Source of the DNA: Cardiobacteriaceae bacterium
Lineage (GTDB): Bacteria; Pseudomonadota; Gammaproteobacteria; Cardiobacteriales; Cardiobacteriaceae
NCBI GenBank assembly: GCA_030532785.1
Contig: JAUNKJ010000012.1
Coordinates: 1 to 23,489, forward strand
DNA length: 23,489 nt
Direction: 5' to 3'
The translations under genes were made by a program, and so were the position numbers. How positions within the stretch are numbered: position 1 is the first letter of the stretch; the number at the start of each line of letters is the position of its first letter. Positions 1 through 20,925 of the stretch are shown here, piece by piece. The notes beneath the pieces are model-generated. The model ran no database searches. It was not told the DNA's origin and saw nothing but the letters and a program-made list of their open reading frames with translations.

Positions 1-380
1 TTGTCGTCGCGGTCGTTATCGCGATCATCGCGATCATCGTCACGATCGTCAACGCGATCATCGTCGCGGTCATCATCATGATCACGGCGCGGCTGGCCGG
101 GCGCGGCGCGGCGGTCGTCATCATCATCATCGCGATCCAGACGGCTGTCGATCACGCGGCCGCTGCGCGCATCGATGCGCACTTCATGGCGGCGGCCATC
201 GGCAGCAATCACATCCACCTCATACTGGCCGCGCTTGGCGTAGTAATCCACATCGGCAACGCGGCCGGCAACATGCGCCTTGGCGGCATTGGCAGCCTGC
301 GAGGCATTGATTTGCGCGTGAGAAGCGCCGACCGCCGCGATGGCCACGGCTACCGCGAGAAGATGCTTTTTGTTCAACAT
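1..380 (-). CDS. PepSY-domain secreted protein with a C-terminal Asp/Arg-rich low-complexity tail; 3' end truncated by the window edge
   Basis: Minus-strand ORF from ATG 380 (not in the ORF track because it runs off the window). Translation: MLNKKHLLAVAVAIAAVGASHA|QINASQAANAAKAHVAGRVADVDYYAKRGQYEVDVIAADGRRHEVRIDARSGRVIDSRLDRDDDDDDRR...DRDDDRVDDRDDDRDDRDND. It has a signal peptide ending AHA, then a PepSY-like core (YEVDV...G..hEV.IDA.SG.Vh), then a DR-rich repeat. A strong SD sits 6 nt upstream of the ATG (AAGGAG at 387-392 on the minus strand). The +-strand ORF 78-473 in the track is its mirror. Confidence 0.65.
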   Translation of the reverse strand, partial: MLNKKHLLAVAVAIAAVGASHAQINASQAANAAKAHVAGRVADVDYYAKRGQYEVDVIAADGRRHEVRIDARSGRVIDSRLDRDDDDDDRRAAPGQPRRDHDDDRDDDRVDDRDDDRDDRDNDRDD

Positions 381-550
381 GATGGACTCCTTTGTCGAAA
401 TACAAAACGTGCTGGCCTTGCCATCACGCGGGAACACTCTAGCCAATTCCGCCGCCAATGGCTCATGACATAACGTTTACCTTGCGCTTATGTAACCTCA
501 TGTTTGCAAATTGGTTTTCCTGAATAATCCGTTTTTCTCGATTTTTATAA

Positions 551-600
551 AAAAATAGTGGTTTTTTACCACGGGCAAGCGCTTGTCGCGGTAAAAAACG
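551..600. repeat. Copy A (short form) of the AT-flanked modular palindromic intergenic element, ATAGTGGTTTTTTACC-AAGCGCTT-GGTAAAAAA type
   Basis: Imperfect palindrome centred on AAGCGCTT, with TTTTTTACC / GGTAAAAAA flanks and an ATAGTG head. It shares these modules with copies at 3608, 5447, 8966, 9805, 15157 and 20839. Confidence 0.6.
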
Positions 601-664
601 TTTATTTTTCATCCCGTAAAGCAATGCTTTCCTGAGCGGCACGGCAAGGGCGCTTCGCGCTACA

Positions 665-3634
665 ATGCCGCCTCTTTTCCCTCGTCATTGCGCCATGTCC
701 TCCCCGATCTCCCCCCTGATCACCAAATTTCTCGACGCGCTTGCCGCGCGCGGTTTTCGTGGCGATATTGCCGCCACCCCCGGCGAACGCGCGGTCTATG
801 CCACCGACAATTCGATTTATTTCCGCCTGCCGCAGGCCGCCGTTTTCCCGCGCGATCATGCGGATGTGGTGTTGCTGATGACCCTGCTCGGCGAAGACGA
901 TTTTCGCGGCGTGCATATCGCCGCGCGCGGCGGCGGTACGGGAACGAATGGCCAATCGCTCACCGACGGCATCGTCGTCGATCTGTCGCGTTACATGCAC
1001 CGCATTGTCGCCATCGACCCGGAAAAGCGCACCGCCACGGTAGAGGCGGGCGTGGTCAAGGATCAGCTGAACGCCGCACTCAAGGCGCACGGCCTCTTTT
1101 TCGCGCCCGAGCTGTCCACCTCGAACCGCGCCACCATCGGCGGCATGATCAACACCGACGCCAGCGGCCAGGGGAGCTGCACCTACGGCAAAACGCGGCA
1201 TCATGTCCTCGCCCTGCACACGGTGCTCGCAGGCGGCGAGACGCTGGTTTCCGAAGCGCTTGCCCGCCACGATTGGCAGGAAAAAATCCGCGACAAACCC
1301 CCGGCGCAACAAGCGTTCTATCACGCGCTTTATCGCCTCGCCGATGAGCATCGCGAAGTCATCGCCAACGCCTTCCCGCCGCTCAACCGCTCGCTCACCG
1401 GCTACGATCTGCCCCATTTGCTCGATGAGAATACCTTCAATATCAACAGTGTCCTTTGCGGCGCGGAAGGCTCGCTCGGCATCGTCACCCAGGCGACGCT
1501 CAATCTCCTGCCCATTCCCAAGCATCGCGCGCTGGTCAATATCGGCTACGCCGATTTCATGGCGGCGCTCTCTGACGCGCGCACCCTGATGGCGCGCAAG
1601 CCGCTCTCCATCGAAACCGTGGATGCCACGGTACTCGCGCTCGCGCAAAACGACATCGTCTGGCAAAGCGTCGCCGACTATTTCCCGGCGGAAGTCGCGG
1701 GCATCAACCTCGTTGAATTCAATGCCGAGAGCGAAGCCGCGCTGCAAGATATTCTCGCTGCTTTTCGCGAACATCTGAAAAATGATCAAAGTGTTGCCCG
1801 GCTGTCGATGACCGAAGCGCATGGCGCACAAGCCATCAACGCGGTGTACAACATGCGCAAGCGCGCCGTGGGGCTTTTGGGCAACGTGCAGGGCGAAGCG
1901 CGGCCGCAGCCCTTTGTGGAAGACACCGCCGTACCGCCGGAACATCTCCCGGAATTTATTGCGGAATTTCGCGCCATTCTCGACCGGCGCGGGCTTGCCT
2001 ACGGCATGTTCGGCCATGTCGACGCGGGCGTCTTGCATGTGCGCCCGACGCTGGACATGAAAGACCCGCAAAGCGCGGAAAAAGTCAAAGACATCAGCGA
2101 CGAAGTCGCGGCGCTGACGCGGCGCTACGGCGGCGTGCTTTGGGGCGAACACGGCAAGGGACTCAGATCCGCCTACGCCCCCGATTTTTTCGGCGACGCC
2201 TACCCGCTCGCGCAACAGGTCAAAGCGCTCTTCGACCCGCACAACCAGTTGAATCCGGGGAAAATTGCCACCCCCGACGCCAGCGCTTTGACCGGCCTCA
2301 CCGACGTCCATTTGCGCGGCAGCCGCGACCGCGCCATCGCCGCCCAAGACTGGCAAGCCTTCGGTGCCGCCATGCACTGCAACGGCAACGGTGCCTGTTT
2401 CAACTACGATTTTCTTGATCCCATGTGTCCCTCGTGGAAAGCCACCCGCGACCGCCGCCACTCGCCCAAAGGCCGCGCGACGCTGATCAAAGAATGGCTG
2501 ATGCAACCCCCGCCCGCGCCGCGACTCTGGAAAGGCAAGGCGCAAGGCCTTGATTTGGAAGTCTATGAGGCGCTGCACGGCTGCCTCTCCTGCAAATCAT
2601 GCAGCGGCCAATGCCCGGTGAAAGTCGACATCCCCGACAGCAAGGCGCGTTTCCTCGAACGCCACCACCACCGCTACCGCCGCCCCTTGCGCGACCATGT
2701 CATCGCCAACCTCGAACACCTCCTGCCGCGCCTCGCCTTCGCCGCGCCGCTCTACAACGCCATCCAGGGCAGCCGCCCCATGCGCGCCCTGCACCGCCGC
2801 CTCCTCGGACTCGTCGACGCCCCGCTCTTCGCCCGCAACGTCGAACTCCCCGCCGTCAACCTCCTGACAAGCCCGGCACAACTCGTTGACATCGAAAAGG
2901 AAAACAGCATCATCCTCGTGCAGGACGCCTTCACCCGCCACTTCGACACCGCCGTGTGGCGCGACTGGCTCCTCCTCCTGCAAGCGCTCGGCGTCAACGT
3001 CTGCGTCCTCCCCTACGTTCCCAGCGGCAAACCATTGCACGTCCACGGCTTCCTCAAACGCTTCGCCAAAACCGCCGAACGCAACCGCGCGCGCTTCGCC
3101 GAATACGCACAAAGCGGCATCGCGCTGGTCGGCCTCGACCCCGCCATCACATTGATATACCGCGACGAATACCGCAAAGACTACGGCCACGCGAAAAGCG
3201 ACCGCGACGACTGGCACATCCTCCTGCCCCAGGAATGGCTCGCGCAATGGCTGGCAAAACAACCGCCCCGCCCCACAAGCAACACCGCGCCGTACTACCT
3301 TGCCGCGCACTGCATGGAAAAAACGCAAATGAACGGCAGCGCGAAAGCCTGGCAACGCATCTTCGCCCACTTCGGGCTGGAACTGCATGAAATCGCCAGC
3401 GGCTGCTGCGGCATGTCCGGCACCTACGGCCACGAAGCCGAACACCTCGGCCTCTCGAAAACCCTCTACGCGCAATCGTGGCAAACGCCCGTCGGCGAAC
3501 ACGGCGAGCGCCTCCTCGCCACCGGCTACTCCTGCCGCAGCCAGGCAAAACGCGTGGACGGGCAAACCCTCGCCCATCCCCTGCAAGCGTTATTGCAGGA
3601 AATATACAAAAATAGTGATTTTTTACCATCATGA
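665..3634 (+). CDS. Fused FAD-linked oxidase / 4Fe-4S + CCG-domain oxidoreductase. A GlcD-like N-terminus is joined to a GlcF-like C-terminus, giving a YdiJ-like D-2-hydroxyacid dehydrogenase architecture
   Basis: 989-aa ORF. FAD_binding_4-type motif RGGGTGTNGQS...GIVVDL near the N-terminus. Ferredoxin-like CLSCKSCSGQCP (C-x2-C-x2-C-x3-CP) at about aa 640. CCG-type cysteine motif CCGMSGTYGHE near the C-terminus. The true start may be ATG 695 (MSSPISP...) rather than 665, since ATG 665 lies inside a TACAAT -10-like hexamer. The last 9 codons and the TGA stop (3632-3634) lie inside repeat copy B. Confidence 0.8.
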   Translation: MPPLFPRHCAMSSPISPLITKFLDALAARGFRGDIAATPGERAVYATDNSIYFRLPQAAVFPRDHADVVLLMTLLGEDDFRGVHIAARGGGTGTNGQSLTDGIVVDLSRYMHRIVAIDPEKRTATVEAGVVKDQLNAALKAHGLFFAPELSTSNRATIGGMINTDASGQGSCTYGKTRHHVLALHTVLAGGETLVSEALARHDWQEKIRDKPPAQQAFYHALYRLADEHREVIANAFPPLNRSLTGYDLPHLLDENTFNINSVLCGAEGSLGIVTQATLNLLPIPKHRALVNIGYADFMAALSDARTLMARKPLSIETVDATVLALAQNDIVWQSVADYFPAEVAGINLVEFNAESEAALQDILAAFREHLKNDQSVARLSMTEAHGAQAINAVYNMRKRAVGLLGNVQGEARPQPFVEDTAVPPEHLPEFIAEFRAILDRRGLAYGMFGHVDAGVLHVRPTLDMKDPQSAEKVKDISDEVAALTRRYGGVLWGEHGKGLRSAYAPDFFGDAYPLAQQVKALFDPHNQLNPGKIATPDASALTGLTDVHLRGSRDRAIAAQDWQAFGAAMHCNGNGACFNYDFLDPMCPSWKATRDRRHSPKGRATLIKEWLMQPPPAPRLWKGKAQGLDLEVYEALHGCLSCKSCSGQCPVKVDIPDSKARFLERHHHRYRRPLRDHVIANLEHLLPRLAFAAPLYNAIQGSRPMRALHRRLLGLVDAPLFARNVELPAVNLLTSPAQLVDIEKENSIILVQDAFTRHFDTAVWRDWLLLLQALGVNVCVLPYVPSGKPLHVHGFLKRFAKTAERNRARFAEYAQSGIALVGLDPAITLIYRDEYRKDYGHAKSDRDDWHILLPQEWLAQWLAKQPPRPTSNTAPYYLAAHCMEKTQMNGSAKAWQRIFAHFGLELHEIASGCCGMSGTYGHEAEHLGLSKTLYAQSWQTPVGEHGERLLATGYSCRSQAKRVDGQTLAHPLQALLQEIYKNSDFLPS

Positions 3635-3698
3635 AGCGCTTACCGTGAGAAATTTTCTCATTATAAGCGCTTAGTGATGAGAAAATTTCTCATCATGA
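3608..3698. repeat. Copy B (long form) of the modular palindromic element
   Basis: AAAAATAGTGATTTTTTACCATCATGAAGCGCTTACCGTGAGAAATTTTCTCATTATAAGCGCTTAGTGATGAGAAAATTTCTCATCATG. It contains two AAGCGCTT cores and two GAGAAA(A)TTTCTCA palindromes. It overlaps the stop codon of the upstream oxidoreductase. Confidence 0.7.
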
Positions 3699-3714: not shown

Positions 3715-3998
3715 AACCCACCTTTCGTAGGTTGGTGGTGCATCTCGACAGGCTCGATAACCATTGCAAGGTCGCTGCATTTCGACAGGCTCAATAACCA
3801 CTTGTCGAAGCTCCTTGCAATGAACTCCAACATGTGACGGCAATAGAAGCCGTAGGCTGGGTTAGTTGCGCAGCAACGTAACCCAGCAGAAATGGTCAAA
3901 TCGCGCTGGGTTACGGCTGCGCCTAACCCAGCCTACGGAAAATGTGCCACGGAAAACGTGCGGTGCGAATTGTCATGGTGGGCTGAAGCCCACCCTAC
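3715..3998. repeat. Cluster of GTAG-headed REP-like palindromic units (BIME-like mosaic) plus a 26-nt direct repeat
   Basis: CGTAGGTTGGTGGTGC (3727) and CGTAGGCTGGGTTAG (3853) on the + strand. The reverse complement carries CCGTAGGCTGGGTTAG (3920-3935) and GGTAGGGTGGGCTTCAGCCCACC (3976-3998). A perfect 16-bp inverted repeat CCGTAGGCTGGGTTAG / CTAACCCAGCCTACGG flanks about 55 nt and contains the nested inverted repeat GTAACCCAGC / GCTGGGTTAC. The direct repeat TGCATYTCGACAGGCTCRATAACCA occurs twice (3740-3766 and 3778-3804). The ...CAGCCTAC ends recall the E. coli REP terminus GGCCTAC. Confidence 0.6.
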
Positions 3999-4105: not shown

Positions 4106-4765
4106 ATGAACAAAAAGACTTCTGGAAAAACCGCCGCCAAGGCATCTGCCGCTAAAACTTCCGCCGACTATCAGCGCGCCTTTCGCCAGCGTTTGCGCGA
4201 ACAGGGCTTGAAGAAGCGGGAGGTCTGGATTCGTCCCGAGCATGAAAAGCTTCTGGGCGAGATTGAAGAACGCCTGCGGCATCCCGCCGCAGGCACTACG
4301 GGAGCAACGCTGATGGATATCCGCAAAGACAGTTGGCATACTGAAGCGCTTTATCAGGCGCTGGCCGCCGAGCCTTTTTTCACTGACGGACGCGCGACGC
4401 TGGAGCTGATTGACGGCCTGCATCCTTCGTTGCTCGTAGTGCTGCATGATTACGGCGATTTGCCCGTGTATCTCGGGCTGTCCGGGGCGCAGATCGTGGT
4501 GGAAGCGGTGTTGTGGCAGGCGTCTTTGGTGCGCGACAGCGCCGCGTTTCACGAGGCGGTACTCGCCACGCACAAGTATTTTCCGCTGTCCACCATCAGT
4601 CTGGAGCAGACGGCGGACGGCGAGGCATATTACGGCATGTTCGGTGCGCTGTTGGCAGCGTCATCGCTTGCCGATATTCTGGTGGAGATTGAAACGCTGG
4701 CGGCAAACGTCATCGAGGCGGCGGCGGCGTACCGCGACTTTTTGCACACGGGAGAAGAGGCATGA
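4106..4765 (+). CDS. DUF2170(YjfI)-like protein with a roughly 85-aa Lys/Ala-rich basic N-terminal extension. Family assignment tentative; it rests on gene-order analogy with E. coli yjfI-yjfJ
   Basis: ORF in the track starts at 4064, but the promoter analysis favours ATG 4106 (MNKKTSGKTAAKASAAKTSADYQRAFRQRLREQGLKKREVWIRPEHEKLL...). The stop TGA at 4763-4765 overlaps the ATG of the downstream PspA-like gene (ATGA). The N-terminus resembles histone-H1/AlgP-like AKA/KTA low-complexity tails. Confidence 0.55.
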   Translation: MNKKTSGKTAAKASAAKTSADYQRAFRQRLREQGLKKREVWIRPEHEKLLGEIEERLRHPAAGTTGATLMDIRKDSWHTEALYQALAAEPFFTDGRATLELIDGLHPSLLVVLHDYGDLPVYLGLSGAQIVVEAVLWQASLVRDSAAFHEAVLATHKYFPLSTISLEQTADGEAYYGMFGALLAASSLADILVEIETLAANVIEAAAAYRDFLHTGEEA

Positions 4766-5451
4766 CCATGTGGGGAAAATTGATGACCGCGTTGCGCGGT
4801 GGGGTACACGAAACGGGCGAGGCGCTGATGGATAGCCAGGCGCTGCGCATTCTCGAGCAGGAAATCCGCGAGGCCACTGCGGAAGTGCAGCGTGCGAAGG
4901 ACAGCCTGGTGGAAGTGATGGCGCAGCAGAAGCTTGCCGAGGGGCGCGCAGGGCAGGTTGCGGAAAAAATCATGGAATATGAGGGCTATGCCTTGCAGGC
5001 GCTCGACAAGGACGAGGAAACGCTGGCGCACGAAGTGGCGGCACGCATTGCCGCGCTGGAGGCGGAAAAGGGCGAGCATGACGCGCTTGCTGGGCAATAC
5101 CGCCACGCCGTCCGTGCTTTGCAGGCCACGATTCAGGAGAGCGAGCAGCATTTGCGCCGCATCCGTCAACAGGCCGATACGGTGAAGGCCACGGCGCATG
5201 TGCAAAAGGCGCAGGCGGCGGTGGCGGAGCGCTTCGGTTCGTCGCAATCGAAGATGCACAATGCGATGGAATCGCTGGCGCGCATTAGGGAACGGCAGAT
5301 GGAAGACGCGATGCGTCTCGAGGTTTCGGGGGAATTGGCGCGCGCCGGCAGCGATGCGGCGCTGGAGGCAAAATTGCGCGATGCCGGGATTGGTGGCAAG
5401 GGCAATACCGATACGCAAGCGATATTGGAACGATTGAAGGCAAAAAAATGA
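4762..5451 (+). CDS. PspA/IM30 (phage-shock protein A / Vipp1, ESCRT-III-like) family protein, YjfJ-like
   Basis: 229-aa all-helical coiled-coil protein (MTMWGKLMTALRGGVHETGEALMDSQALRILEQEIREATAEVQRAKDSLVEVMAQQKLAEGRAGQVAEKIMEYEGYALQAL...) with the characteristic PspA N-terminal amphipathic region and heptad pattern. It is translationally coupled to the upstream gene. The TGA stop (5449-5451) lies inside repeat copy G. Confidence 0.75.
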   Translation: MTMWGKLMTALRGGVHETGEALMDSQALRILEQEIREATAEVQRAKDSLVEVMAQQKLAEGRAGQVAEKIMEYEGYALQALDKDEETLAHEVAARIAALEAEKGEHDALAGQYRHAVRALQATIQESEQHLRRIRQQADTVKATAHVQKAQAAVAERFGSSQSKMHNAMESLARIRERQMEDAMRLEVSGELARAGSDAALEAKLRDAGIGGKGNTDTQAILERLKAKK

Positions 5452-5512
5452 GAAATTTTTGCACACCAAGCGCTTTGTGAGGGTAAAAAATGATTATTTT
5501 GAGTGATAGTAT
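5447..5512. repeat. Copy G (partial, divergent) of the modular palindromic element
   Basis: AAAAAAATGAGAAATTTTTGCACACCAAGCGCTTTGTGAGGGTAAAAAATGATTATTTTGAGTGATAGTAT. It carries the AAGCGCTT core, a GGTAAAAAA flank and a terminal GATAGTAT (ATAGTG head inverted). Confidence 0.5.
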
Positions 5513-5561
5513 GACTTCGTCGGTGTTGTCGTGATAACCCTATAAGATGAAAGGCTATTAT

Positions 5562-5683
5562 CCTCCCCTGCTTGCGGGGGAGGGACAGGGTAGGGGGAAA
5601 CGAGGTTTTCCACTTTATTGCCTCAAAAGAATGCTATGCGTTTGACACCCCCATCCCAACCTTTCCCCGTAAGCAGGGGAAGG
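5562..5683 (+). promoter_or_regulatory. Structured intergenic leader upstream of the yqiJ-like gene: two C-rich/G-rich hairpins, a G-quadruplex-capable G-run motif and a long-range 9-nt inverted repeat
   Basis: Hairpin 1 CCTCCCCTGCTTGCGGGGGAGG (5562-5584). G-run motif GGGGGAGGGACAGGGTAGGGGG (5576-5597). Hairpin 2 CTTTCCCCGTAAGCAGGGGAAGG (5661-5683). TTGCCTCAA (5618-5626) pairs with TTGAGGCAA (5690-5698). The function (terminator, attenuator or sRNA) is unknown. Confidence 0.35.
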
Positions 5684-5760
5684 AGTGGATTGAGGCAAAA
5701 CGAAACATCAATGCCAATAGCTGTACTTCTCCTTCAATTGAGACTGGCAAAGGAACAACC

Positions 5761-6399
5761 ATGGAAACCTTTTTCTACACGGCGTTTACCTTCCCCACGG
5801 CGGTGCCGACATTTTTGCTGATGCTCGCCGTACTCTTCTGGCTGGTGTCGCTTTTGGGTCTCATCGATGCCGACAGTCTGCTCGATGGCCTTGACGGCGG
5901 CGACGGCAACTTTGCCGAAAGCGGCGGGCTGCCCGCAGCACTCCTCTGGCGCTTCCGCCTGATCGGCTATCCGATCACGCTGACCCTGACCGTGGTGGCG
6001 CTCTTTGCCTGGTGGCTGTGCTATTACGCGATGTTTTTCCTCACGCCGCTGTTGCCGTGGCCATGGCTGCGTTATCCCGTGGGCATCGCCCTGTTGCCGC
6101 TCGCGTTTTACGCCGCCGCGTGGCTCGCGGGCAAGGCGCTGCTGCCGCTGCGGCCGCTCTTTGTGCAAAAGGAAACGCGGGCGCAGGGTTTTGTCGGGAA
6201 AACGGCAGTGGTGCGCACCTCTGCCGTCGACGAGCATTTCGGCGAGGCGACGCTTGACGACGGCGGCGCGGGGCTGATTGTCCAGGTGCGCAGCCGCACG
6301 CCGCTCGATGCCGGGACGCGTGTGGTGCTGCTCGAATTCGATGCCCAGGATCATGTGTATTATGTGATGGCAGAACAGGAATTTTTTGCAAAGGAGTAA
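5761..6399 (+). CDS. YqiJ-like (DUF1449 / NfeD-type) inner-membrane protein; predicted partner of the downstream flotillin
   Basis: Start at ATG 5761 (METFFYTAFTFPTAVPTFLLMLAVLFWLVSLLGL...), preceded by AAAGGAACAACC. The ORF in the track, starting at 5572, runs through the structured leader and is rejected. The protein has several N-terminal TM helices and a C-terminal soluble OB-fold-like segment (GFVGKTAVVRTSAVDEHFGEATLDDGGAGLIVQVRS...VVLLEFDAQDHVYYV), as in NfeD/YqiJ proteins. The TAA stop (6397-6399) sits inside the SD of the next gene. Confidence 0.65.
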   Translation: METFFYTAFTFPTAVPTFLLMLAVLFWLVSLLGLIDADSLLDGLDGGDGNFAESGGLPAALLWRFRLIGYPITLTLTVVALFAWWLCYYAMFFLTPLLPWPWLRYPVGIALLPLAFYAAAWLAGKALLPLRPLFVQKETRAQGFVGKTAVVRTSAVDEHFGEATLDDGGAGLIVQVRSRTPLDAGTRVVLLEFDAQDHVYYVMAEQEFFAKE

Positions 6400-6403
6400 C
6401 ACG

Positions 6404-8287
6404 ATGATGGAAATGATATTACCGGTCGCGACCGGCGCGGCGATTGTGCTGGCAGTGCTGATTTGCGTGGCGCTGCTGTTCAAGGCCTTCTATTACAAAG
6501 TCAATCAGGGCACCGCCCTGATCGTCAATGATCTCAGCCGCACGCCCAAGGTGCATTTCACCGGCGCATTTGTCTACCCGGTGATCTACCGCAAGGAATT
6601 GATGAATATCTCATTGATTACCATGGAAATCGACCGGCGCGGCAAGGACGGCCTCATCTGCGCCGACAATATGCGCGCCGATATTACCGTCGCCTTCTAT
6701 CTGCGCGTCAACGAAACCGCCGAAGATGTGCTGAAAGTCGCCAAATCCGTGGGCGCGGGGCGCGCCTCCGACAAAGACGCCGTCAACGACCTCTTCAACG
6801 CCAAATTCTCCGAAGCGCTGAAAACCGTGGGCAAACAGATTGAATTCGTCAAACTCTTTGAAAACCGGCAGGATTTCCGCGACAAAATCATCCGCGTCAT
6901 CGGCAATGATCTGAACGGCTACATCTTGGAAGACGTCGCCATCGACTACCTCGAACAAACGCCGAAAAGCTCGCTCGACCCCAACAACATCCTCGACGCC
7001 GAAGGCATCCGCAAAATCACCGAACTCACCGCGCAGCAAAACATCCGCACCAATATGCTCGCCCGCGATGAAGAACTCGCCATCACCAAGAAAAACGTGG
7101 AAACGCGCGAAGCCATGCTCGAACTCGAACGCCAGCAAGCCGACGCCGAAGCCAAACAGCAGCGCGAAATCGCGAGCATCCGCGCCCGCGAAGAAGCCGA
7201 AGCACGCAAAGTGCAGGAAGAAGAACGCAAAAAAGGGGAAATGGCGCACATCCTCGCCGAGCAGGAACTCGCCGTCATGCGCGAAAACCAGCAGCGCGAA
7301 GTAGACGTCGCCGCGCAAAACCGCGAACGCGCCGTCGCCGTGGAAATCGAAAAAGTCAACCGCGCAAGGGCGCTGGAAATCGTCTCGCGCGAACGCGAAG
7401 TGGAACTGCACCGCATCGAAGCGGAAAAAGCCGTGGAAGTGCAGAAACAGGAAATCGCCAACGTCATCCGCGAGCGCATCAGCGTCGACAAAACCGTCGC
7501 CATCGAAGAAGAACGCATCAAGGAAGTGCGCGAAGTGGCGGAAGCCGACCGCGCCAAACAAGTGCGCATCCTCGAAGCCGAAGCGCGCGCCGAAGAAGAA
7601 AAAGTCCGCGCCATCAAAGCCGCCGAAGCCGAAGAACAAAGCGCCAAACACCGCGCGGTGGAAATCACCACCATCGCCCAGGCGCGCCTCGACGCCGCCG
7701 CCAAAGACGCCGACGCCAAGAAAAAACTCGCCGAAGGCACCCAGGCCGAACAGGCCGCCTTTGGCCTCGCCGCCGCCCGCGTCCAGGAAGCGCAAGCCAT
7801 TGCCAGCGAAAAACAGGGCATGGCGGAAGCGAACATCATCCGCGCCAAAGGCGAAGCACAGGCGCAGGCCGAGCGCGACATCGGCATGGCACAAGCCGAG
7901 ATCACCCGTGAACAATTCCGCGCCGAAGCCGATGGTTTGACAGAAAAATTCGGCGCGATGGACACCATGAGCGCGGAATCCCGCGCGCACGAGGAATACC
8001 GCATGCGCCTCGACAACGCGCTGAAAGAAAGCCTCGCCGCCATCGCCGCCGGACAGGAAATCGCCCAGGAAAACGCGCGCATCCTCGCGATAGCACTCGA
8101 AAAAGCGAAAATCGACATCGTCGGCGGCGAACAGCACTTCTTCGACACCTTCGCCAAATCACTCTCGCTCGGCAAATCCATCGACGGCCTCATCGGCAAA
8201 AGCGACATCGCCAGCAGCGTCATCCAGCAATTGCTGGGCAGGGACGCGCTGCCGGAGCGGCATGACGAACAAAACAGTGGGGGATAA
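6404..8287 (+). CDS. Flotillin / band-7 (SPFH) family protein, YqiK-like, with a long Glu/Ala/Arg/Lys-rich coiled coil
   Basis: AAGGAG at 6391-6396 lies 7 nt upstream of ATG 6404 (MMEMILPVATGAAIVLAVLICVALLFKAFYYKVNQGTALIVND...). It has an N-terminal TM anchor, then an SPFH core (ADITVAFYLRVNETAEDVLKVAKSVG...), then an EA-repeat coiled coil of about 300 aa (7050-7950), as in bacterial flotillins. Gene order with the upstream NfeD-type gene matches E. coli yqiJ-yqiK. Confidence 0.8.
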   Translation: MMEMILPVATGAAIVLAVLICVALLFKAFYYKVNQGTALIVNDLSRTPKVHFTGAFVYPVIYRKELMNISLITMEIDRRGKDGLICADNMRADITVAFYLRVNETAEDVLKVAKSVGAGRASDKDAVNDLFNAKFSEALKTVGKQIEFVKLFENRQDFRDKIIRVIGNDLNGYILEDVAIDYLEQTPKSSLDPNNILDAEGIRKITELTAQQNIRTNMLARDEELAITKKNVETREAMLELERQQADAEAKQQREIASIRAREEAEARKVQEEERKKGEMAHILAEQELAVMRENQQREVDVAAQNRERAVAVEIEKVNRARALEIVSREREVELHRIEAEKAVEVQKQEIANVIRERISVDKTVAIEEERIKEVREVAEADRAKQVRILEAEARAEEEKVRAIKAAEAEEQSAKHRAVEITTIAQARLDAAAKDADAKKKLAEGTQAEQAAFGLAAARVQEAQAIASEKQGMAEANIIRAKGEAQAQAERDIGMAQAEITREQFRAEADGLTEKFGAMDTMSAESRAHEEYRMRLDNALKESLAAIAAGQEIAQENARILAIALEKAKIDIVGGEQHFFDTFAKSLSLGKSIDGLIGKSDIASSVIQQLLGRDALPERHDEQNSGG

Positions 8288-8290
8288 GCC

Positions 8291-8554
8291 ATGGATATCA
8301 CGACCATTGATTTGCACGATGCAGAAAAACAGCTCGTGCAATTGGTGCAGAAAGTCAGCCGTTCGGGCAAACCAATCGTGATTGCCGAAGATGGCAAATC
8401 TTTGGTGCAGATCGCGCCGCTTGCGGAAAAAAACCGCAAACCGATTTGGGGCTTTATGCAAGGGCAAATCACCGTGCCGGATGATTTTGATGACATGGAA
8501 GCGGAGACGATCGCGGCCATGTTTGCCGGAGAGGATGATGAAGATTCTCTTTGA
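8291..8554 (+). CDS. Type II antitoxin, Phd/YefM (VapB-like) family
   Basis: 87 aa. MDITTIDLHDAEKQLVQLVQKVSRSGKPIVIAEDGKSLVQIAPL...KPIWGFMQGQITVPDDFDDMEAETIAAMFAGE. The C-terminal G.M.G.I.IPDDFD...F segment is typical of antitoxins paired with PIN toxins. Its 3' end overlaps the toxin start. Confidence 0.75.
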   Translation: MDITTIDLHDAEKQLVQLVQKVSRSGKPIVIAEDGKSLVQIAPLAEKNRKPIWGFMQGQITVPDDFDDMEAETIAAMFAGEDDEDSL

Positions 8555-8933
8555 TACCCATGTCCTTTTATGGATTGCGCTGGATCAGAAAGAAAAATTT
8601 TCCCGGAAAAGCCTGGCCTTGCTTGAAAACGCAGATCAGGATTTTTATGTGAGCGTGGCGAGTATTTGGGAAATTGCGATCAAGGCATCGTTGCAGAAAA
8701 CGGATTTCCAGATTGACCCTCGGCAGATGGTATTCCAGATGCAGGAGGCGGGAATCCATTTGCTGCCCATTGCATGCGAGCATATTTTTCATCTTGCGCA
8801 ATTGCCATCCATTCATCGCGATCCTTTTGACCGCCTGCTGCTGGCGCAAGCGGAAACGGAAAAGATGTATTTGATGACCGCCGACAGTAAATTGTTGCAG
8901 TACGCAAGCGCTTGGGTCATCGCGGCGGGATAG
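8535..8933 (+). CDS. vapC: VapC-type PIN-domain ribonuclease toxin
   Basis: Start at ATG 8535/8538 (MMKILFDTHVLLWIALDQ...), overlapping the antitoxin stop (8552-8554) by about 20 nt. The track ORF 8382-8933 begins inside the antitoxin and is not used. PIN acidic residues appear in the expected context (FDTHVLLW; SVASIWEIAIK; DPFDRLLLAQAE; LMTAD). Confidence 0.8.
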   Translation: MMKILFDTHVLLWIALDQKEKFSRKSLALLENADQDFYVSVASIWEIAIKASLQKTDFQIDPRQMVFQMQEAGIHLLPIACEHIFHLAQLPSIHRDPFDRLLLAQAETEKMYLMTADSKLLQYASAWVIAAG

Positions 8934-8965: not shown

Positions 8966-9051
8966 GGTGAGAAAATTTCTCATGTATAAGCGCTTTGCGC
9001 GAGAAAATTTCTCACCATAAGCGCTTAATGATGGTAAAAAAACCACTATTT
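8966..9051. repeat. Copy C (long form, inverted orientation) of the modular palindromic element
   Basis: TGGTGAGAAAATTTCTCATGTATAAGCGCTTTGCGCGAGAAAATTTCTCACCATAAGCGCTTAATGATGGTAAAAAAACCACTATTT, the reverse complement of the ATAGTGGTTTTTTTACC...AAGCGCTT...GAGAAAATTTCTC arrangement. It is followed directly by the SD and ATG of the ankyrin gene. Confidence 0.7.
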
Positions 9052-9062
9052 CAAGGATAAAT

Positions 9063-9800
9063 ATGAAAAAATATACAAAAACCGGCAAAGCCCTGTGGTT
9101 ATCCCTGCTCTGCGCGCTGAACCTCGCCCACGCCACGGACGATGCGCAGGCGGAAAAACTGCACGAGATGTCGCGTGCGGCGAAGGCGGGCGATGTGGCA
9201 GCGTTGCAGACGCTCGCGGGCACGCCGCCGGATCAGGCACTTTATGCGCGTCTCTTGTGCCGCAGCATCGCCGCGGACAATTTCCGCGCGTTTGTCGCCC
9301 TGCTCGATGCCGGTGCCGATGCCGGCTATGGCGAGCGCGGCGTGCGTGATCCCGGGATACACTGCGCCGTGTTGCCGCCCGCGCTTCGAGCGCGCTATCT
9401 CGAAGAACTGTTGCGGCGTGGCGTGGACGTGAACACGCGCAATACCCTGGGGGAAACCCCGCTGCACAGCGCGCTGGGGCTGACGAAAAAGCCGTTCGTC
9501 CAGATCGAGATGGTCGACATGCTGCTCGCGGCAGGCGCGGACATCCACGCCCGCGACAAATACGGCAAGACCGTGCTGTTCAAGGCCATCGTCGGCGGCA
9601 ATCCGCACCGCGACTGGGTGATGTATTTTCTCGAAAAAGGCGTGGACCCGCAGGCGAGAAGCGATATGGGTTACACCTTCCAGTTCAACTATCTCTACAG
9701 CACCCGCGAAATGAAAGGCGAGGGGAAACGCCGCCGCGACAAAGTCAGACAATGGCTTAGCGAACGCGGCATACCGCTGGAAAGTGATGCAAAAAAATAA
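9063..9800 (+). CDS. Secreted (Sec signal peptide) ankyrin-repeat protein
   Basis: MKKYTKTGKALWLSLLCALNLAHA|TDD... signal peptide with an AxA site. There are at least three ANK repeats (e.g. GETPLHSALGLTKKPFVQIEMVDMLLAAGADIHARDKYGKTVLFKAIVGG). RBS AAGGA sits 7-10 nt upstream. The stop TAA 9798-9800 immediately precedes repeat copy D. Confidence 0.75.
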   Translation: MKKYTKTGKALWLSLLCALNLAHATDDAQAEKLHEMSRAAKAGDVAALQTLAGTPPDQALYARLLCRSIAADNFRAFVALLDAGADAGYGERGVRDPGIHCAVLPPALRARYLEELLRRGVDVNTRNTLGETPLHSALGLTKKPFVQIEMVDMLLAAGADIHARDKYGKTVLFKAIVGGNPHRDWVMYFLEKGVDPQARSDMGYTFQFNYLYSTREMKGEGKRRRDKVRQWLSERGIPLESDAKK

Positions 9801-9804
9801 CCAT

Positions 9805-9860
9805 TTATAGTGATTTTTTACCACCACAAGCGCTTCACGATGGTAAAAACATACTATATT
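9805..9860. repeat. Copy D (short form) of the modular palindromic element
   Basis: TTATAGTGATTTTTTACCACCACAAGCGCTTCACGATGGTAAAAACATACTATAT, a roughly 50-bp palindrome ATAGT...TTTTTTACCA...AAGCGCTT...TGGTAAAAA...ACTAT. Confidence 0.65.
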
Positions 9861-9878
9861 TAAGCAAAGGATGAAAAA

Positions 9879-12800
9879 ATGACCGATCTGCACAGCGAAA
9901 CCCTGGTCAATCAGGCGGTGGCCGAAGGCAGCGCCTACGCCATCATCCGCAAGCGTCTGGAGGAACAGGGCGCGCGCTTGCAGACCCTGACCCGTGCCTT
10001 GAACGAGGCGCGTACCGCGCATTTCGGCAGCACCGAGATGCGCGTCGTCGCCCGCATCCGCGTGCGCACCGAACACAATTGCATCGCCCGCGACATGGTG
10101 CAGCTCGGCGACACACTCCTCTTCGGCTACAACGTTTTCATGGGACTCAAGCCGGAAACGCATGTGGCAGACGTCTTCGCCCTGTTTGCGCTGGAGGTGG
10201 CGGACGGGCAAACCACCATCCGCGAAGTGCCGCTCGCGGGCAGCTTCCTGCAAGACAGCCGCTTCACCAGCGATTTCGACGAACTCTACCGCTATTACAA
10301 GCACACCCGGCTCACCGAACTCACCGTGCGCGACGGCAAACTTCTGGCCGCCTTCCAGATCGGCGAACGCGCCGAAGACCGCCGCGTCTTCCGCTGGCAA
10401 TTGCGCCCCGACGGCACGCCGGATTACATCGACAACCGTGGCGAACGCGACATCGCGCTCCCCGAACCCTATGATTTCCTGTGGCATAGCGCCGGGCGCG
10501 AGCGCCTGAGCGAAGACGGCAGCCACCTCAACATCGCCGACACCCTGTTTGTCGCCACACGCGACGGCACCCTCACCCTGCGCATGGAAGACAACACCCA
10601 AGGCGGGCAAACCCTGCTTGCGGAAACGCTTGCCGACCGCACCCAATCGCTCGCCGATCTCGACGCCGCATGGGCGGATGTCGACGGCCTGCTGCTCCTG
10701 CGCCTCACCCCCTACCGCGAAGCGCCGCGCCACTACATTTTCAACCGCCTCACCCAAGCGCTCACGCGCGAAGACAGCCTCGGCGACTCCTGCGTGCAGC
10801 TCCCGGAAGGCCACGGCATCCTCTACCCCGGCGGTTATGCCCTTGCAAGTGGCGAGATCAAAAACTACGACGAACCGCAGGGCATGACCTTCAAGCGCAA
10901 AATCCGCGCCCCCAACGGCGAAGACATGCTCTTCGTCTTCTACGCCCCGGCGCGCGGCGAATTTGCCCTCTACTCCTACAACCTCATCAGCAAAAGCCTG
11001 CAAAATCCGGTGTATGGCCACGGCTATGCGCTCTCGCCTTCCGGCGCGCTCACCATCTTCAGCGCCGAAGGCGAGCCGACGCGGGTGCATCCCATGCAAA
11101 TCTGGCAAACGCCCTATTGCAGCGACGAACACGCCGCCAACCAGCCGCAGGACGACGCCCCCTTCTCGCGCATCGGCAACCCCGATCTGGTGCGCGGCAT
11201 CTCCGACCTCTACAGCGTCGCCCGCCTCATCGGCGAACAGCAGGCCAGCCAGGCCGTCTACGAACGCCTGCAAAAACAGATACAAAAACTCTTTGACGAC
11301 TACTACTGGCTTGATGACGCCAGCCTCGCCGCCGAAGCAACGCTTGCGCCCTTTGCCGCCCTGCTGCGCGACATGGACGCCACCGCCGACAACGTCATCG
11401 ACGAATTTGAAAAAGCCGAAGCCATCCGCCGCGACGCCGCCCACGCGCTCGAACAGGCGCGCGAGGCGCAGCGCCAGTTGCAGCGCGACCTGCAACACGG
11501 GCAATGGGCAACCGTGGGCGAACACGCCCAGGCGCTCGCCCGCATCGGTGAAGCGCGCGGGCAGCTCGTCATGCTCGGCGAACGGCGCGGCATGGATACG
11601 GCAGCGCTTGGCGAACTGCAACAGGCGCTCGACGCCCTGCAGGCGCAGACCGGCGAGCGCACCGTCGCCTTCTTGCGCGACGCCAACGCCTTTGCCGCCT
11701 ACCACGACGCGCTGGCGCAACTGGCGGCGCAAATCGATGCCGCCGCCAAACGCAGCGATCTCGACGCCATCCTCGCCGACATCCAGCACAGCGCCGCCGG
11801 GCTGGATGAACTCTCGGCGCTGATGAACACGCTGGAGATTGAAGACGCCACCCTGCGCACCCGCATCATTGACGACATCTCCGCCGTCTACGCCCGCCTC
11901 AACCAGGAGCGCGCCCGCGCGCGCCACAAGGGGCAAGGCCTCGGCAGCGAAGAAGCCGCCGCGCAATTCGCCGCGCAAATGAAGCTGCTCACGCAAAGCC
12001 TCGGCAATGCGCTCGCCGACGTGCAAACCCCGGAGGACTGCGACGATGCGCTCGCGCGTCTCCTCGTGCAACTGGAAAATCTGGAAAGCCGCTTTGCTGA
12101 CGACGAACGCTTCCTTGCCGACCTCGCCGACAAGCGCGACGACCTGCACAGCGCGCTCACCGAACGCAAGCAGCAACTGCTCGAAGCGCGCGAACGCAAG
12201 GGGCAGCAACTCGCCGACGCCGGCTCGCGCATCCTCGACAACCTCGCGCGCCGCGCCCAGACCTTCAGCGACGTCGCCGCCTTCAACACCTGGCTTGCCA
12301 GCGATGCACTGGTGCAGAAAATCGCCCAACTCGGCAAAACCCTGCGCGAACAGGGCGACACCGTGCGCGCCGACGACCTCGACGCCCGCTTCAAGGCCAT
12401 CCGCGACCAGGCTATCCGCACCTTGCGCGACAAAAGCGAACTCTTTGACGGCGAACATCTCATCCGCTTCGGCCAATACCGCTTTTCCGTCAACAGCACA
12501 GCGCTCGACCTCGTCCTCCTGCCGCGCGAGGGCAAACTCTGCGCCCACCTCGCCGGTACCCAATATTTCCAGCCCATCGAACACCCCGAACTCGACGCCC
12601 TGCGCGACTACTGGGACATCAGCGTCCTCTCCGAAAGCGCCGCGCTCTACCGCAGCGAATATCTCGCGGCCGAAATGCTGCGCGCCGCCGTGCGCCGCGA
12701 ACAGGGCCTGACCCTCGAAGCGCTGGGGCAGGCGGTGCAAAGCCTGCCCGACTTGCAGGCGCTGGCAGCCGCCTTTGCCGCGCCGCGCTATCAGGAAGGC

Positions 12801-15164: not shown

Positions 15165-15240
15165 TGATTTTTTACCACCATGAAGCGCTTATCGCGAGAA
15201 AATTTTGCACGATAAGCGCTTCATGGTGAGAGAATTTACC
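15157..15240. repeat. Copy E (long form) of the modular palindromic element
   Basis: AAAAAATAGTGATTTTTTACCACCATGAAGCGCTTATCGCGAGAAAATTTTGCACGATAAGCGCTTCATGGTGAGAGAATTTACC. It contains a perfect 19-bp stem CACCATGAAGCGCTTATCG / CGATAAGCGCTTCATGGTG around a 13-nt loop. Confidence 0.7.
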
Positions 15241-15264
15241 AAATAACCACGCAGGATGCGCGAC

Positions 15265-15328
15265 GGTGGGCTGAAGCCCAGCCTACAAATCGCTGCGCGA
15301 TTCCCCCACCCCCGCAAGTGGGGGAGGG
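15265..15328. repeat. REP-like GTAG-headed unit plus a C-rich/G-rich hairpin, in the convergent gap between the giant ATPase gene and polA
   Basis: The reverse complement of 15271-15296 reads TGTAGGCTGGGCTTCAGCCCACC, the same family as 3976-3998. CCCCCACCCCCGCAAGTGGGGGAGGG (15300-15328) has the same stem type as hairpins 5562-5584 and 5661-5683. The hairpin lies just 3' of the polA stop on the minus strand, but no U-tract follows it. Confidence 0.55.
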
Positions 15329-15336
15329 CGTTTCAT

Positions 15337-19433: not shown

Positions 19434-20822
19434 ATGGAATGGCTGTCGCTCGTGATGTTTGCCGTGCTTTGCGTCGTGCTGATGCTGGGCTATCCCGTGT
19501 CCATGTCGCTCGCGGGCGTGGCGCTGCTCTTTGCCGGGCTGGGCATCGGCGTGGAAGCGTTTGATGCCACCTTCCTGCAAGCCATCAGCAGCCGCATGTA
19601 CGGCATCATGACCAACGAAACCCTGATCGCCGTGCCCACTTTCGTTTTCATGGGCATTACCCTGCAAAAGGCGAAAATCGCGGAAGATTTGCTCGACACC
19701 ATGACGCTGCTTTTCGGCGGCATTCGCGGGGGGATGGCCTTTTCCGTGGCGGTGGTGGGCATGCTGCTCGCCGCGTCCACCGGGATTGTCGGCGCGACGG
19801 TCGTCACCATGAGCTTGCTCTCCCTGCCGGTGATGCTGAAGCGCGGCTACGACCCGGCGCTCTCCTGCGGCATCATCTGCGCCTCGGGAACGCTTGGGCA
19901 AATCATTCCGCCGTCCATCGTCCTGATTCTTCTCGGGGATGTGATCGGCAATGCCTACGGCGAAGCACAACGCGACATGGGCAATTTCGCCCCCGATACC
20001 GTGTCGGTGAGCGACCTTTTCATCGCCGCCATCATCCCCGGCACGCTGCTCGTCGGCCTCTATATCCTGTATCTCATTGCCCGCGCAATCTTTACTCCGC
20101 AAGCGCTGCCCTTGCTCAGCAAGGAAGAACGCGCCGCGCAACGCGGCGAGCGCTTCTATTTGCGCCTCGTTTTCGTGCTGCTGCCACCGCTCACCCTGAT
20201 CGTCTGCGTTCTCGGCTCCATCACCATGGGGCTGGCGACGCCGACTGAAGCGGCAAGCATTGGCGCATTCGGCGCGCTCATCCTCGCCTTCATCCGCTAT
20301 GCCGTGGACAAAAGCAAAGGCAAAGCGGCCAGCCTGCGCTGGCTCATCGACGTGCCACGCGAAACGCTGATCCTCACCAGCATGGTGTTCTTCATCCTCA
20401 TGGGCGCGTCGCTGTTCTCCCTCGTCTTCCGCGCCTACGGCGGCGATCATCTTATCGAAACCGCGCTCACCAACCTCCCTGGCGGCGTCATCGGCGCGAT
20501 GCTCGTGGTCATGCTCGTCATGTTCCTCTTGGGCTTCGTCCTTGATTTCCTCGAAATCGTCTTCGTCGTCGTCCCCATCGTCGCTCCCATCCTCTTCAAG
20601 ATGGATGTCGACCCGGTGTGGTTCGCGATCATGGTGGCGATGAATCTGCAAACCAGCTTCCTCACCCCGCCCTTCGGCTTTGCGCTTTTCTTCCTGCGCG
20701 GCGTGGCCCCAGCGAGCGTGCCGACCAGCGCCATCTACCGGGGCGTCATCCCCTTTATCATCATCCAGATGCTGATGCTCCTCATCCTCGCGCTGGTGCC
20801 GGGTATGGTGCATTGGTTGTAA
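19434..20822 (+). CDS. dctM: TRAP transporter large permease subunit
   Basis: Start at ATG 19434 (MEWLSLVMFAVLCVVLMLGYPVSMSLAGVALLFAG...) with GGGAGGA 7 nt upstream. The track ORF begins at an upstream in-frame ATG at 19413. The 462-aa polytopic permease is typical of DctM. No dctP solute-binding gene is present in the window. Confidence 0.85.
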   Translation: MEWLSLVMFAVLCVVLMLGYPVSMSLAGVALLFAGLGIGVEAFDATFLQAISSRMYGIMTNETLIAVPTFVFMGITLQKAKIAEDLLDTMTLLFGGIRGGMAFSVAVVGMLLAASTGIVGATVVTMSLLSLPVMLKRGYDPALSCGIICASGTLGQIIPPSIVLILLGDVIGNAYGEAQRDMGNFAPDTVSVSDLFIAAIIPGTLLVGLYILYLIARAIFTPQALPLLSKEERAAQRGERFYLRLVFVLLPPLTLIVCVLGSITMGLATPTEAASIGAFGALILAFIRYAVDKSKGKAASLRWLIDVPRETLILTSMVFFILMGASLFSLVFRAYGGDHLIETALTNLPGGVIGAMLVVMLVMFLLGFVLDFLEIVFVVVPIVAPILFKMDVDPVWFAIMVAMNLQTSFLTPPFGFALFFLRGVAPASVPTSAIYRGVIPFIIIQMLMLLILALVPGMVHWL

Positions 20823-20838
20823 TTTTTCATAAAAACAG

Positions 20839-20925
20839 TAAAAATAGTCGATTTTTACCACCATGAAGCGCTTATTGTGAGAAATTTTTGCACAGTAAGC
20901 GCTTTGCGGTGGGAAAATTTCCCAT
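20839..20925. repeat. Copy F (long form) of the modular palindromic element
   Basis: AAAAATAGTCGATTTTTACCACCATGAAGCGCTTATTGTGAGAAATTTTTGCACAGTAAGCGCTTTGCGGTGGGAAAATTTCCCA. Confidence 0.65.

Follow-up and report, generated by a model that had tools for sequence, protein, structure and literature searches.

Small repeats that overlap the 3' ends of genes, and that provide proteins with C-terminal residues and stop codons, are already known from other bacteria. In Coxiella, the 3' ends of ubiB, pntAA, mutT, recN, ruvB, and other functional genes overlap QMITE1 or QMITE2 sequences by 1-50 bp; for enhC, an insertion or deletion (indel) decides whether translation reads 33 residues into QMITE2 (PMC5896051). 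Similarly, fusion of enterobacterial RU-1 elements (ERIC/IRU) to gene 3' ends abolishes the normal stop (PMC2759123). We describe here the same phenomenon in a contig of 23,489 nt from a metagenome-assembled genome (MAG) of a Cardiobacteriaceae bacterium, which was analyzed over its whole length and is called the window below. The window carries seven intergenic copies (A to G) of one mosaic palindromic repeat family, and three of its genes (ydiJ, pspA, and the gene for a giant ATPase) stop on a triplet of well-conserved element consensus. As in Coxiella and in the enterobacteria, small indels set whether the stop lies before or inside the repeat.

The sequences and hosts of the QMITEs are unrelated to those of the window family. 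QMITEs also possess terminal inverted repeats together with direct repeats, and one of them is linked to IS1111, whereas no target duplication was found for the window family and the tails that it adds to proteins are shorter (0-8 residues). The family appears to be previously undescribed and to belong to an uncultured Cardiobacteriaceae clade. It is a mosaic repeat family resembling REP/BIME or MITE elements, best filed as a new small-repeat family with a known side-effect. Stop-codon overlap by repeats is an already documented and minor side-effect of this kind, and not a new mechanism.

Gene ends within repeat elements

The unit of the family is a module of 31 nt, the imperfect palindrome TTTCTCA-N4-AAGCGCTT-N5-TGAGAAA, which occurs once or twice per element. 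Element ends are of two kinds, called T (AAAAATAGTGATTTTTTACC; full T-arm consensus AAAAATAGTGATTTTTTACCA) and J (TGAGAAATTTTCTCA). The T arm can be written with a weaker outer extension as (TTnTCAnAAAAn5)AAAAATAGTGATTTTTTACCA.

The 3' end of ydiJ reads TAC AAA AAT AGT GAT TTT TTA CCA TCA TGA, and its TGA (3632-3634, + strand) shares nucleotides with the first AAGCGCTT core of copy B (cATGAAGCGCTT). The initial annotation of this DNA had correctly placed the stop inside the element together with the last nine codons, of which only eight (3608-3631) lie in the consensus; these eight are the T arm read in frame and encode the tail KNSDFLPS. Among the best 120 YdiJ homologs, the conserved HPxQxLL motif is followed by 2-15 variable residues. 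Because the tails of element-free homologs are unrelated (one element-free genome ends in LLTRLNERQA) and an element occupies this site in three relatives as well, the YdiJ tail can be recognized as element-derived. In the relative with 83% amino acid (aa) identity (L001), the arm is read in the same frame and the protein ends in KNSDFLPR. The relative at 74% (L006) has a degenerate arm, uses the same TGA, and ends in KNKQKTPT. The third, at 73% (L002), has a single-module element and an upstream tail that is 2 nt shorter, so that the TAG of the T arm is used instead of the TGA and the protein ends in KYCQK. Comparison of these gene ends indicates that YdiJ gained eight element-coded residues, and that small indels decide which element stop is read.

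A different end of the element is used by pspA, which finishes with AAG GCA AAA AAA TGA. As initially annotated, the J end of copy G, TGAGAAATTTTTGCAC, opens with this TGA (5449-5451, + strand), and the other coordinates given in that annotation were likewise accurate. Many element-free PspA homologs end in RLKKK or RLKNKK, a conserved basic motif. The element-free pspA of Suttonella contains the same AAAAAAA run and ends with AAAAAAAGAGAATTAA (TTGAAGGCAAAAAAAGAGAATTAA), giving LKAKKEN, compared with AAAAAAATGAGAAATTT (TTGAAGGCAAAAAAATGAGAAATTT), giving LKAKK, in the window. Since Suttonella shares both the A-run and the Lys-Lys pair, these lysines of PspA are native. The initial annotation listed the endings DAKK, KAKK, and KPKK (ankyrin protein, PspA, and ATPase) correctly, and its derivation of Lys-Lys from the flank of the element does not hold for PspA, whose element-free homologs have the same residues; for this gene, that is the outcome which the annotation itself had named as refuting its claim. 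The J end instead replaces about two codons and the stop, making PspA about 2 residues shorter than its Suttonella counterpart. Stop usage also varies at this site: the relative with 90% aa identity (L067) uses the J-arm TGA as in the window, the one at 71% (L068) stops at a T-arm TAG and ends in LKAQREG, and the one at 63% (L069) has its own TAA, ends in LKAQREGA, and stops 53 nt before what looks like the same element.

The ATPase gene ends with AAA AAA TAG, and this TAG (15162-15164) falls within the ATAGTG of copy E. Its only close relative (P0241 in locus L070, 73% identity) matches it in tail length (ending NGKKQP) and has its own TAA 15 nt before a T arm, with the arm TAG in the same frame. 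Distant element-free homologs possess variable Lys-rich tails such as NATKIK and ILERFKK, and a scan of JGI metagenomes with the ATPase yielded only relatives at 52% identity or less. Copy E supplies the stop and the last Lys codon or codons, with no detectable truncation and a tail that lies within the variation of the family. The proposal that the elements reshaped gene 3' termini is partly borne out, namely by the three element-borne stops, the element-coded tail of YdiJ, and the slightly shorter PspA.

The initial annotation extended that proposal to at least five genes in the window, which overstated the number. In the ankyrin gene, dctM, and the gene for a PIN protein, the gene's own stop is kept and lies ahead of the conserved arm, at distances of 6, 17, and ~33 nt, respectively. 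Specifically, the ankyrin stop (TAA, 9798-9800; protein ending DAKK) precedes the ATAGTG of copy D, the dctM TAA precedes the A-run of copy F, and the PIN stop (TAG, 8931-8933) precedes the J end of copy C. The accompanying statement that the stops at copies D and E lie inside the element or at most 7 nt upstream of it is accurate. A search with the ankyrin protein in a library of 50% representatives recovered mostly multi-ankyrin proteins and one true ortholog (P0368; L155 74-1432; 452 aa, 61% aa identity). This ortholog aligns through RGIPLE(S/T), 4 codons before the window stop, and then continues for 213 more residues. The extension has no homolog in the window, and its only Pfam hit (DUF6683) is below threshold. 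The window protein (245 aa), which at this point has DAKK and then copy D, may have undergone an element-associated truncation, or the longer protein may be a fusion that arose in the other lineage.

Stop overlap is a property of the whole family. Additional copies were sought with the pattern GATTTTTTACC-N5-6-AAGCGCTT across 185,579 species genomes. Among the matches listed, at least 47 loci belong to MAG S15M_Sa_46 (Cardiobacteriaceae bacterium, JAUMXB01) and the other 13 are single chance matches in unrelated genomes; other carriers may exist beyond the matches listed. Protein searches revealed further carriers in the ENA assemblies MUNK22 and BREA21 and in several Logan contigs. The family is absent from the examined parts of Suttonella ornithocola (20.7 kb) and of a 2.36-Mb genome with 58% G+C (22.9 kb). 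The family-wide counts given below combine the window, 47 S15M_Sa_46 loci, and four metagenomic loci, in which genes were called with a codon-usage model trained on the Pfam-supported genes of the window.

Of 116 T ends that face the 3' end of a gene, the TAG of ATAGTG serves as the stop in 11, and the stop lies deeper in the arm in another 4. Of 54 J ends in the same situation, 6 supply the stop through the TGA of TGAGAAA and 3 through the TAA of GGTAAA. Taken together, ~15% of the ends that face the 3' end of a gene hold the stop, and when the weaker arm extension is counted in, this is true for 57 of the 116 T ends. The arms are 80-90% A+T in a genome of ~60% G+C and are therefore full of stop triplets: the T arm carries TAG and TGA, plus TAA in its extension, and the J arm carries TGA or TAA. 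Reading frames that enter the T arm are closed in 72% of cases, after a median of 9 codons. Proteins that end on the T-arm TAG mostly have K or KK as their C-terminus. Of 16 open reading frames (ORFs) that read into the conserved T arm, 12 do so in the frame that adds only Lys (p ~8e-4 by a hand-calculated binomial test against one third), an excess that would follow from selection against long tails as well as from targeting of stops. The A-run belongs to the T-arm consensus; it recurs on arms that face gene starts or that lie more than 70 nt from any stop. Because it belongs to the element, the preference for AAAAAA-stop target sites proposed at first is unnecessary.

Anatomy and placement of the repeat family

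The window contains 16 occurrences of the word AAGCGCTT, of which 11 are inside the seven copies (Table 1); shuffled sequences contain 0.91 +/- 1.03. An alignment of 58 two-module copies yields the consensus AAAAATAGTGATTTTTTACCA-N5-AAGCGCTT-ATnGTGAGAAATTTTCTCAC-nAT-AAGCGCTT-N5-TGAGAAAATTTCTCA. Its blocks, which are either invariant or conserved to more than 90%, alternate with variable segments of 4-5 nt. The T arms form terminal inverted repeats, ATAGTGATTTTTTACC ... GGTAAAAAATCACTAT, as judged from 41 single-module copies.

Table 1. Repeat copies and genes of the window
Feature	Position	Strand	Description
Copy A	549-609		One module with T arms on both sides (AAAAAAATAGTGGTTTTTTACCAC-GGGC-AAGCGCTT-GTCGC-GGTAAAAAACGTTTATTTT); between divergent gene starts; predicted fold -18.7 kcal/mol, z -3.0
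Copy B	3608-3697	+	Two modules; T arm toward ydiJ, J end distal; holds last 8 ydiJ codons and stop; predicted fold -32.6 kcal/mol, z -8.4
Copy G	5449-5497	-	One module; J end TGAGAAATTTTTGCAC at pspA, T arm GGTAAAAAATGATTAT distal; stable hairpin not predicted, z +0.25; orthologous copy in L067
Copy C	8966-9049	-	Two modules; 83% complementary to copy B over 77 nt; J end toward PIN gene; T arm ends 14 nt before ankyrin ATG (9063)
Copy D	9807-9857		One module with T arms on both sides; 6 nt after ankyrin stop TAA (9798-9800); 22 nt before ATPase ATG (9879)
Copy E	15156-15241	+	Two modules; between convergent ATPase gene and polA; predicted fold -40 kcal/mol, z -9.7
Copy F	20840-20924	+	Two modules; after dctM; arm extension TTTTTCATAAAAACAGT, weakly conserved, adjoins the dctM stop TAA (20820-20822)
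Minus-strand gene	3-380	-	
ydiJ	695-3634	+	D-2-hydroxyglutarate dehydrogenase type
DUF2170 gene	4106-4765		
pspA	4762-5451	+	PF04012
Two genes	5761-6399 and 6404-8287		No assigned function
PIN protein gene	8535-8933		Preceded by a small ORF
Ankyrin protein gene	9063-9800		
DUF3686/AAA ATPase gene	9879-15164		1761 aa
polA	15337-18039	-	
LOG-family gene, dctQ, then dctM	dctM end at 20822		
rpsO and pnp			After dctM

Two-module copies are predicted to fold with -29 to -40 kcal/mol (z -5 to about -10), and their hairpins begin at or beside the stop; single-module copies are less stable. With three pairing models applied to an alignment of copies, both the percentage of paired positions and covariation equaled those of column shuffles, and the pairing rests on the conserved blocks only. 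A hairpin of RNA or DNA maintained by compensatory change was rejected on this basis. An intrinsic terminator was also considered and rejected: a T run precedes the stem and an A run follows it on both strands, and the terminator consensus is not enriched. In a consensus scan, terminator-like sites were no more common than in shuffled sequence, and the only one within an element is a small hairpin in a T arm of copy A. No enrichment of the sigma-70 promoter consensus was detected at the elements, and no element in the window matched Rfam 15.

Placement relative to genes is strongly biased. The S15M_Sa_46 loci (370 kb, 58% G+C) contain 324 AAGCGCTT cores, or 0.88 per kb, and there is about one element per 2-3 kb. 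Across all loci combined, 260 clusters of cores comprise ~190 structured intergenic elements and 71 bare cores within genes. Convergent gaps hold 39 elements (41 such gaps in the loci), codirectional gaps 97 (251 gaps), and divergent gaps 10 (38 gaps). The family thus fills intergenic DNA near gene 3' ends, being present in almost all convergent gaps and rare in divergent ones. Its orientation relative to transcription is random, with 16 elements T-first and 13 J-first. A stop is found within 50 nt of the core for 59 of the 116 T ends facing a gene 3' end, and a start that close for 13 of 80 T ends facing a gene start.

Start codons downstream from elements are often located 15-25 nt past CACTAT, as for the ATGs of the ankyrin and ATPase genes. 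The T arm extends ~36 nt past ATAGTG with the weak motif TTnTCAnAAAA, and the outward strand reads TTTTnTGA or TTTATGA there (window 9043-9065 and 9851-9881). Elements may also abut or shape ribosome-binding regions.

REP, BIME, and REPIN elements of gamma-proteobacteria share several of these qualities. They are short imperfect palindromes present in hundreds of extragenic copies, are enriched just downstream of genes (especially convergent ones), and form mosaics of units with specific linkers whose doublets make long hairpins. However, these elements are GC-rich and mobilized by RAYT tyrosine transposases, whereas the window family is AT-rich with modules arranged head-to-tail every 31 nt. 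The conserved GTAG or GT[AG]G foot of REPs is absent from the 58-copy consensus (ATAGTG...CACTAT, with TGAGAAA ends), and a CTAC foot was observed only in a separate GC-rich family of the same genome. Compensatory changes like those of REP stems did not exceed shuffles in the window family. No RAYT homolog emerged when E. coli RayT was compared by tblastn with ~450 kb of carrier DNA, a sample that covers ~15% of one genome (nothing better than E = 1.5). The terminal inverted repeats are a MITE-like feature; the target-site duplication expected of a MITE was not found, in that no boundary had a 3-5-nt direct repeat within 30 nt above a shuffled-partner control, a result that still allows a palindromic TA duplication.

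The Correia, NIME, and dRS3 repeats of Neisseria are also abundant intergenic mosaics of short inverted-repeat motifs, with conserved ends, variable centers, and co-transcription with their neighbors. Correia elements reportedly span 100-155 bp, contain an IHF site, and show a TA duplication, and dRS3 is said to be ATTCCC-N8-GGGAAT. In contrast, the window family has no sequence similarity to Correia or dRS3 repeats and no detected duplication. Mycobacterial MIRUs resemble it as tandem short intergenic units in operons with ends that overlap the upstream stop and the downstream start. They are reportedly direct repeats of 46-100 bp with small ORFs for translational coupling, whereas the units described here are 31-nt palindromes without an ORF. 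In architecture and placement the family is comparable to REP/BIME/REPIN elements or to the NIME/Correia mosaics. Because no GTAG foot, covariation, RAYT, or duplication was seen, we do not assign its members to these families and file them as a separate small-repeat family. A literature search on the 8-mer AAGCGCTT returned nothing relevant.

The separate GC-rich, REP-like palindrome, GGTGGGCTGAAGCCCACC followed by CTAC (a GTAG foot as in RAYT-type REPs), is found at window positions 3977-3994 and 15265-15282 and at L002 18377, with 19 matches in 425 kb of related loci. It often adjoins the J end of AAGCGCTT elements, and L069 has it downstream of the pspA stop, ahead of the element. Further palindromes of G/C tracts, CCTCCCCTGCTTGCGGGGGAGGG ... 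CCCCGTAAGCAGGGGAAGG and CCCCCACCCCCGCAAGTGGGGGAGGG, occupy window 5560-5690 and ~15305-15332, in the gaps downstream of pspA and polA.

Explanations for the overlap with stop codons

Orthologous copies provide a view of how elements change with time. When copy B (3608-3672) is compared with its counterpart in L001, and copy G (5449-5497) with that in L067, the conserved blocks are ~100% identical and the variable 4-5-nt segments are close to random. The third codon positions beside these copies are 69-78% identical, and module number differs between lineages at orthologous sites. Variable segments that change faster than synonymous sites suggest copy replacement or gene conversion at fixed sites. 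The block pattern thus points to such replacement or conversion among copies, or to selection on the blocks, and simple vertical decay does not fit.

We consider it probable that stop overlap is a passive by-product, in which a stop-rich, AT-rich repeat situated behind genes takes over termination with no dedicated mechanism. According to this model, the repeat would accumulate and be renewed directly behind genes, 0-30 nt from the native stop, and renewal at fixed sites would occur through re-insertion or with other copies as donors for gene conversion. Termination would then shift to the nearest element triplet upon a change at the junction, for example when the element inserts within the last codons, an unconstrained tail acquires a small indel, or the native stop is lost. 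Selection would retain only those outcomes that alter a few non-conserved C-terminal residues.

Several points weigh against this interpretation. We infer, rather than observe, the order of events in which insertion precedes the indel or stop loss. No empty site or presence/absence polymorphism was found, so that the mobility of the elements is presumed; no S15M_Sa_46 locus overlapped the window. Integration into stop codons could account equally well for the sharp TAG-frame excess. Blocks that evolve more slowly than synonymous sites suggest that the elements are not neutral passengers, and given this slow evolution, the overlap with stops could be functionally relevant. Finally, gene calls in the related loci come from a simple codon-usage caller that was checked only against the Pfam-supported genes of the window and the database calls for L002.

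If stop codons or A-rich contexts around them (the TA of TAA or TAG, for instance) were instead the specific integration targets of the elements, then TA joined to G(TGAT..) would recreate a TAG and the stop would be held by the chemistry of insertion. The peak of stops on the T-arm TAG is consistent with this explanation (11 of 116, compared with 1-2 at neighboring offsets), as are the several stops fused to the A-run (TAAaaaatagtg), the TA at both the start and the end of the T arm, and the presence of differently structured, independent elements at the same gene end in different lineages. However, the A-run and extension belong to the element and not to its target, as their presence on arms facing starts or far from stops demonstrates, and the boundaries lack direct repeats of 3-5 nt above the control. 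About half of the 3'-facing ends are more than 50 nt from a stop, J ends overlap stops in the same manner with a different triplet, and purifying selection against long junk tails predicts the same TAG-frame excess. We therefore regard site-specific integration as unlikely. Equally doubtful is a selected gene-end cassette, whose hairpins at mRNA 3' ends would stabilize transcripts or stall terminating ribosomes, or which would present phased sites to a AAGCGCTT-recognizing protein, such that a stop inside the element is adaptive. The nearly invariant blocks beside diverged synonymous sites argue for it. So do the 4-5-nt spacers that vary freely without covariation, as is typical of protein-binding half-sites at fixed spacing, and the repetition of modules, with A and T tracts in phase, at 31-nt intervals that correspond to some three turns of the helix. 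The very stable predicted folds of two-module copies, with hairpins at or beside the stop, are also in keeping with this role, and REPs within ~15 nt of the stop are said to stall ribosomes in E. coli. Yet just ~15% of 3'-facing ends overlap a stop, orientation is random with respect to transcription, copy G has no stable fold, neither a terminator or promoter consensus nor an Rfam family was recognized, and gene conversion among hundreds of copies can also conserve blocks. A more elaborate form of this idea, which we hold to be slightly more doubtful still, is that AAGCGCTT modules would form a gene-end cassette, serving either as phased sites for a putative protein that binds DNA or RNA or as a signal for uptake or for the nucleoid, with blocks that are under selection, renewed by conversion between copies, and double as a multi-frame translational backstop placed on the stop codon.

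The word AAGCGCTT might also be the uptake signal of a transformable Cardiobacteriaceae lineage, with the palindromes corresponding to the paired DNA uptake sequences (DUS) or uptake signal sequences (USS) behind genes of Neisseria and Haemophilus. A density of ~0.9 cores per kb resembles that of DUS or USS genomes, the core is flanked by phased AT tracts, and DUS pairs in Neisseria are linked to terminators and located behind genes. Cardiobacterium hominis is transformable according to a report mentioned in a later paper (Tonjum et al. 1985, cited in PMC3630211), and this transformability was all that a literature search on a Cardiobacterium uptake sequence returned. Within coding sequence, AAGCGCTT occurs 68 times, compared with 18.6 +/- 3.7 after synonymous shuffling (281 kb, window plus related loci). 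However, this excess is just 3.7-fold and the sister words AAGCGCTG and AAGCGCTC are enriched as well (2.7-fold and 2.35-fold), cores in coding sequence lack the AT-tract flanks, and about three quarters of all cores reside in structured intergenic elements. Palindromy is not a feature of known uptake sequences, and no enrichment was seen in 20.7 kb of Suttonella. Because sister words are also enriched and genic copies lack the flanks, the case for uptake is weak, and we consider this function very improbable. Genic AAGCGCTT occurs mostly in the frames K-R-F/L and (E/Q/K)-A-L. A bias of context, repair, or methylation around AGCGCT seems as likely as a signal to account for the genic excess.

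Gene neighborhood and implications

The gene map of the window (Table 1) was derived from Pfam together with a codon-usage gene call. Directly upstream of copy C (window 8291-8933), an ORF of 87 aa with no Pfam hit precedes the PIN-domain (VapC-like) gene, and the two constitute a possible toxin-antitoxin pair. A partial tRNA is cut by the contig end (23439-23489; Rfam RF00005, 24.4 bits, under the gathering score), and this is the sole Rfam match at E <= 1 in the window. In Suttonella ornithocola (UHIC01000001.1 1683914-1704600; locus L073), the DUF2170-pspA operon and the giant DUF3686 ATPase gene are syntenic with the window. Between them lie a filamentous prophage (Rep_trans, Phage_Coat_B, Zot) and an IS110 transposase, at the place occupied in the window by the two genes without assigned function and the PIN and ankyrin genes.

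The C-termini of several proteins in this lineage are repeat-derived, as with KNSDFLPS of YdiJ, or are set by a repeat triplet, and they should not be annotated as conserved features. This family represents a dense case of a known effect, in which intergenic repeats continually redraw the unconstrained tails of proteins. The invariant blocks, free spacers, and 31-nt phasing also make the repeat a reasonable candidate for a functional site in this uncultured, host-associated clade.

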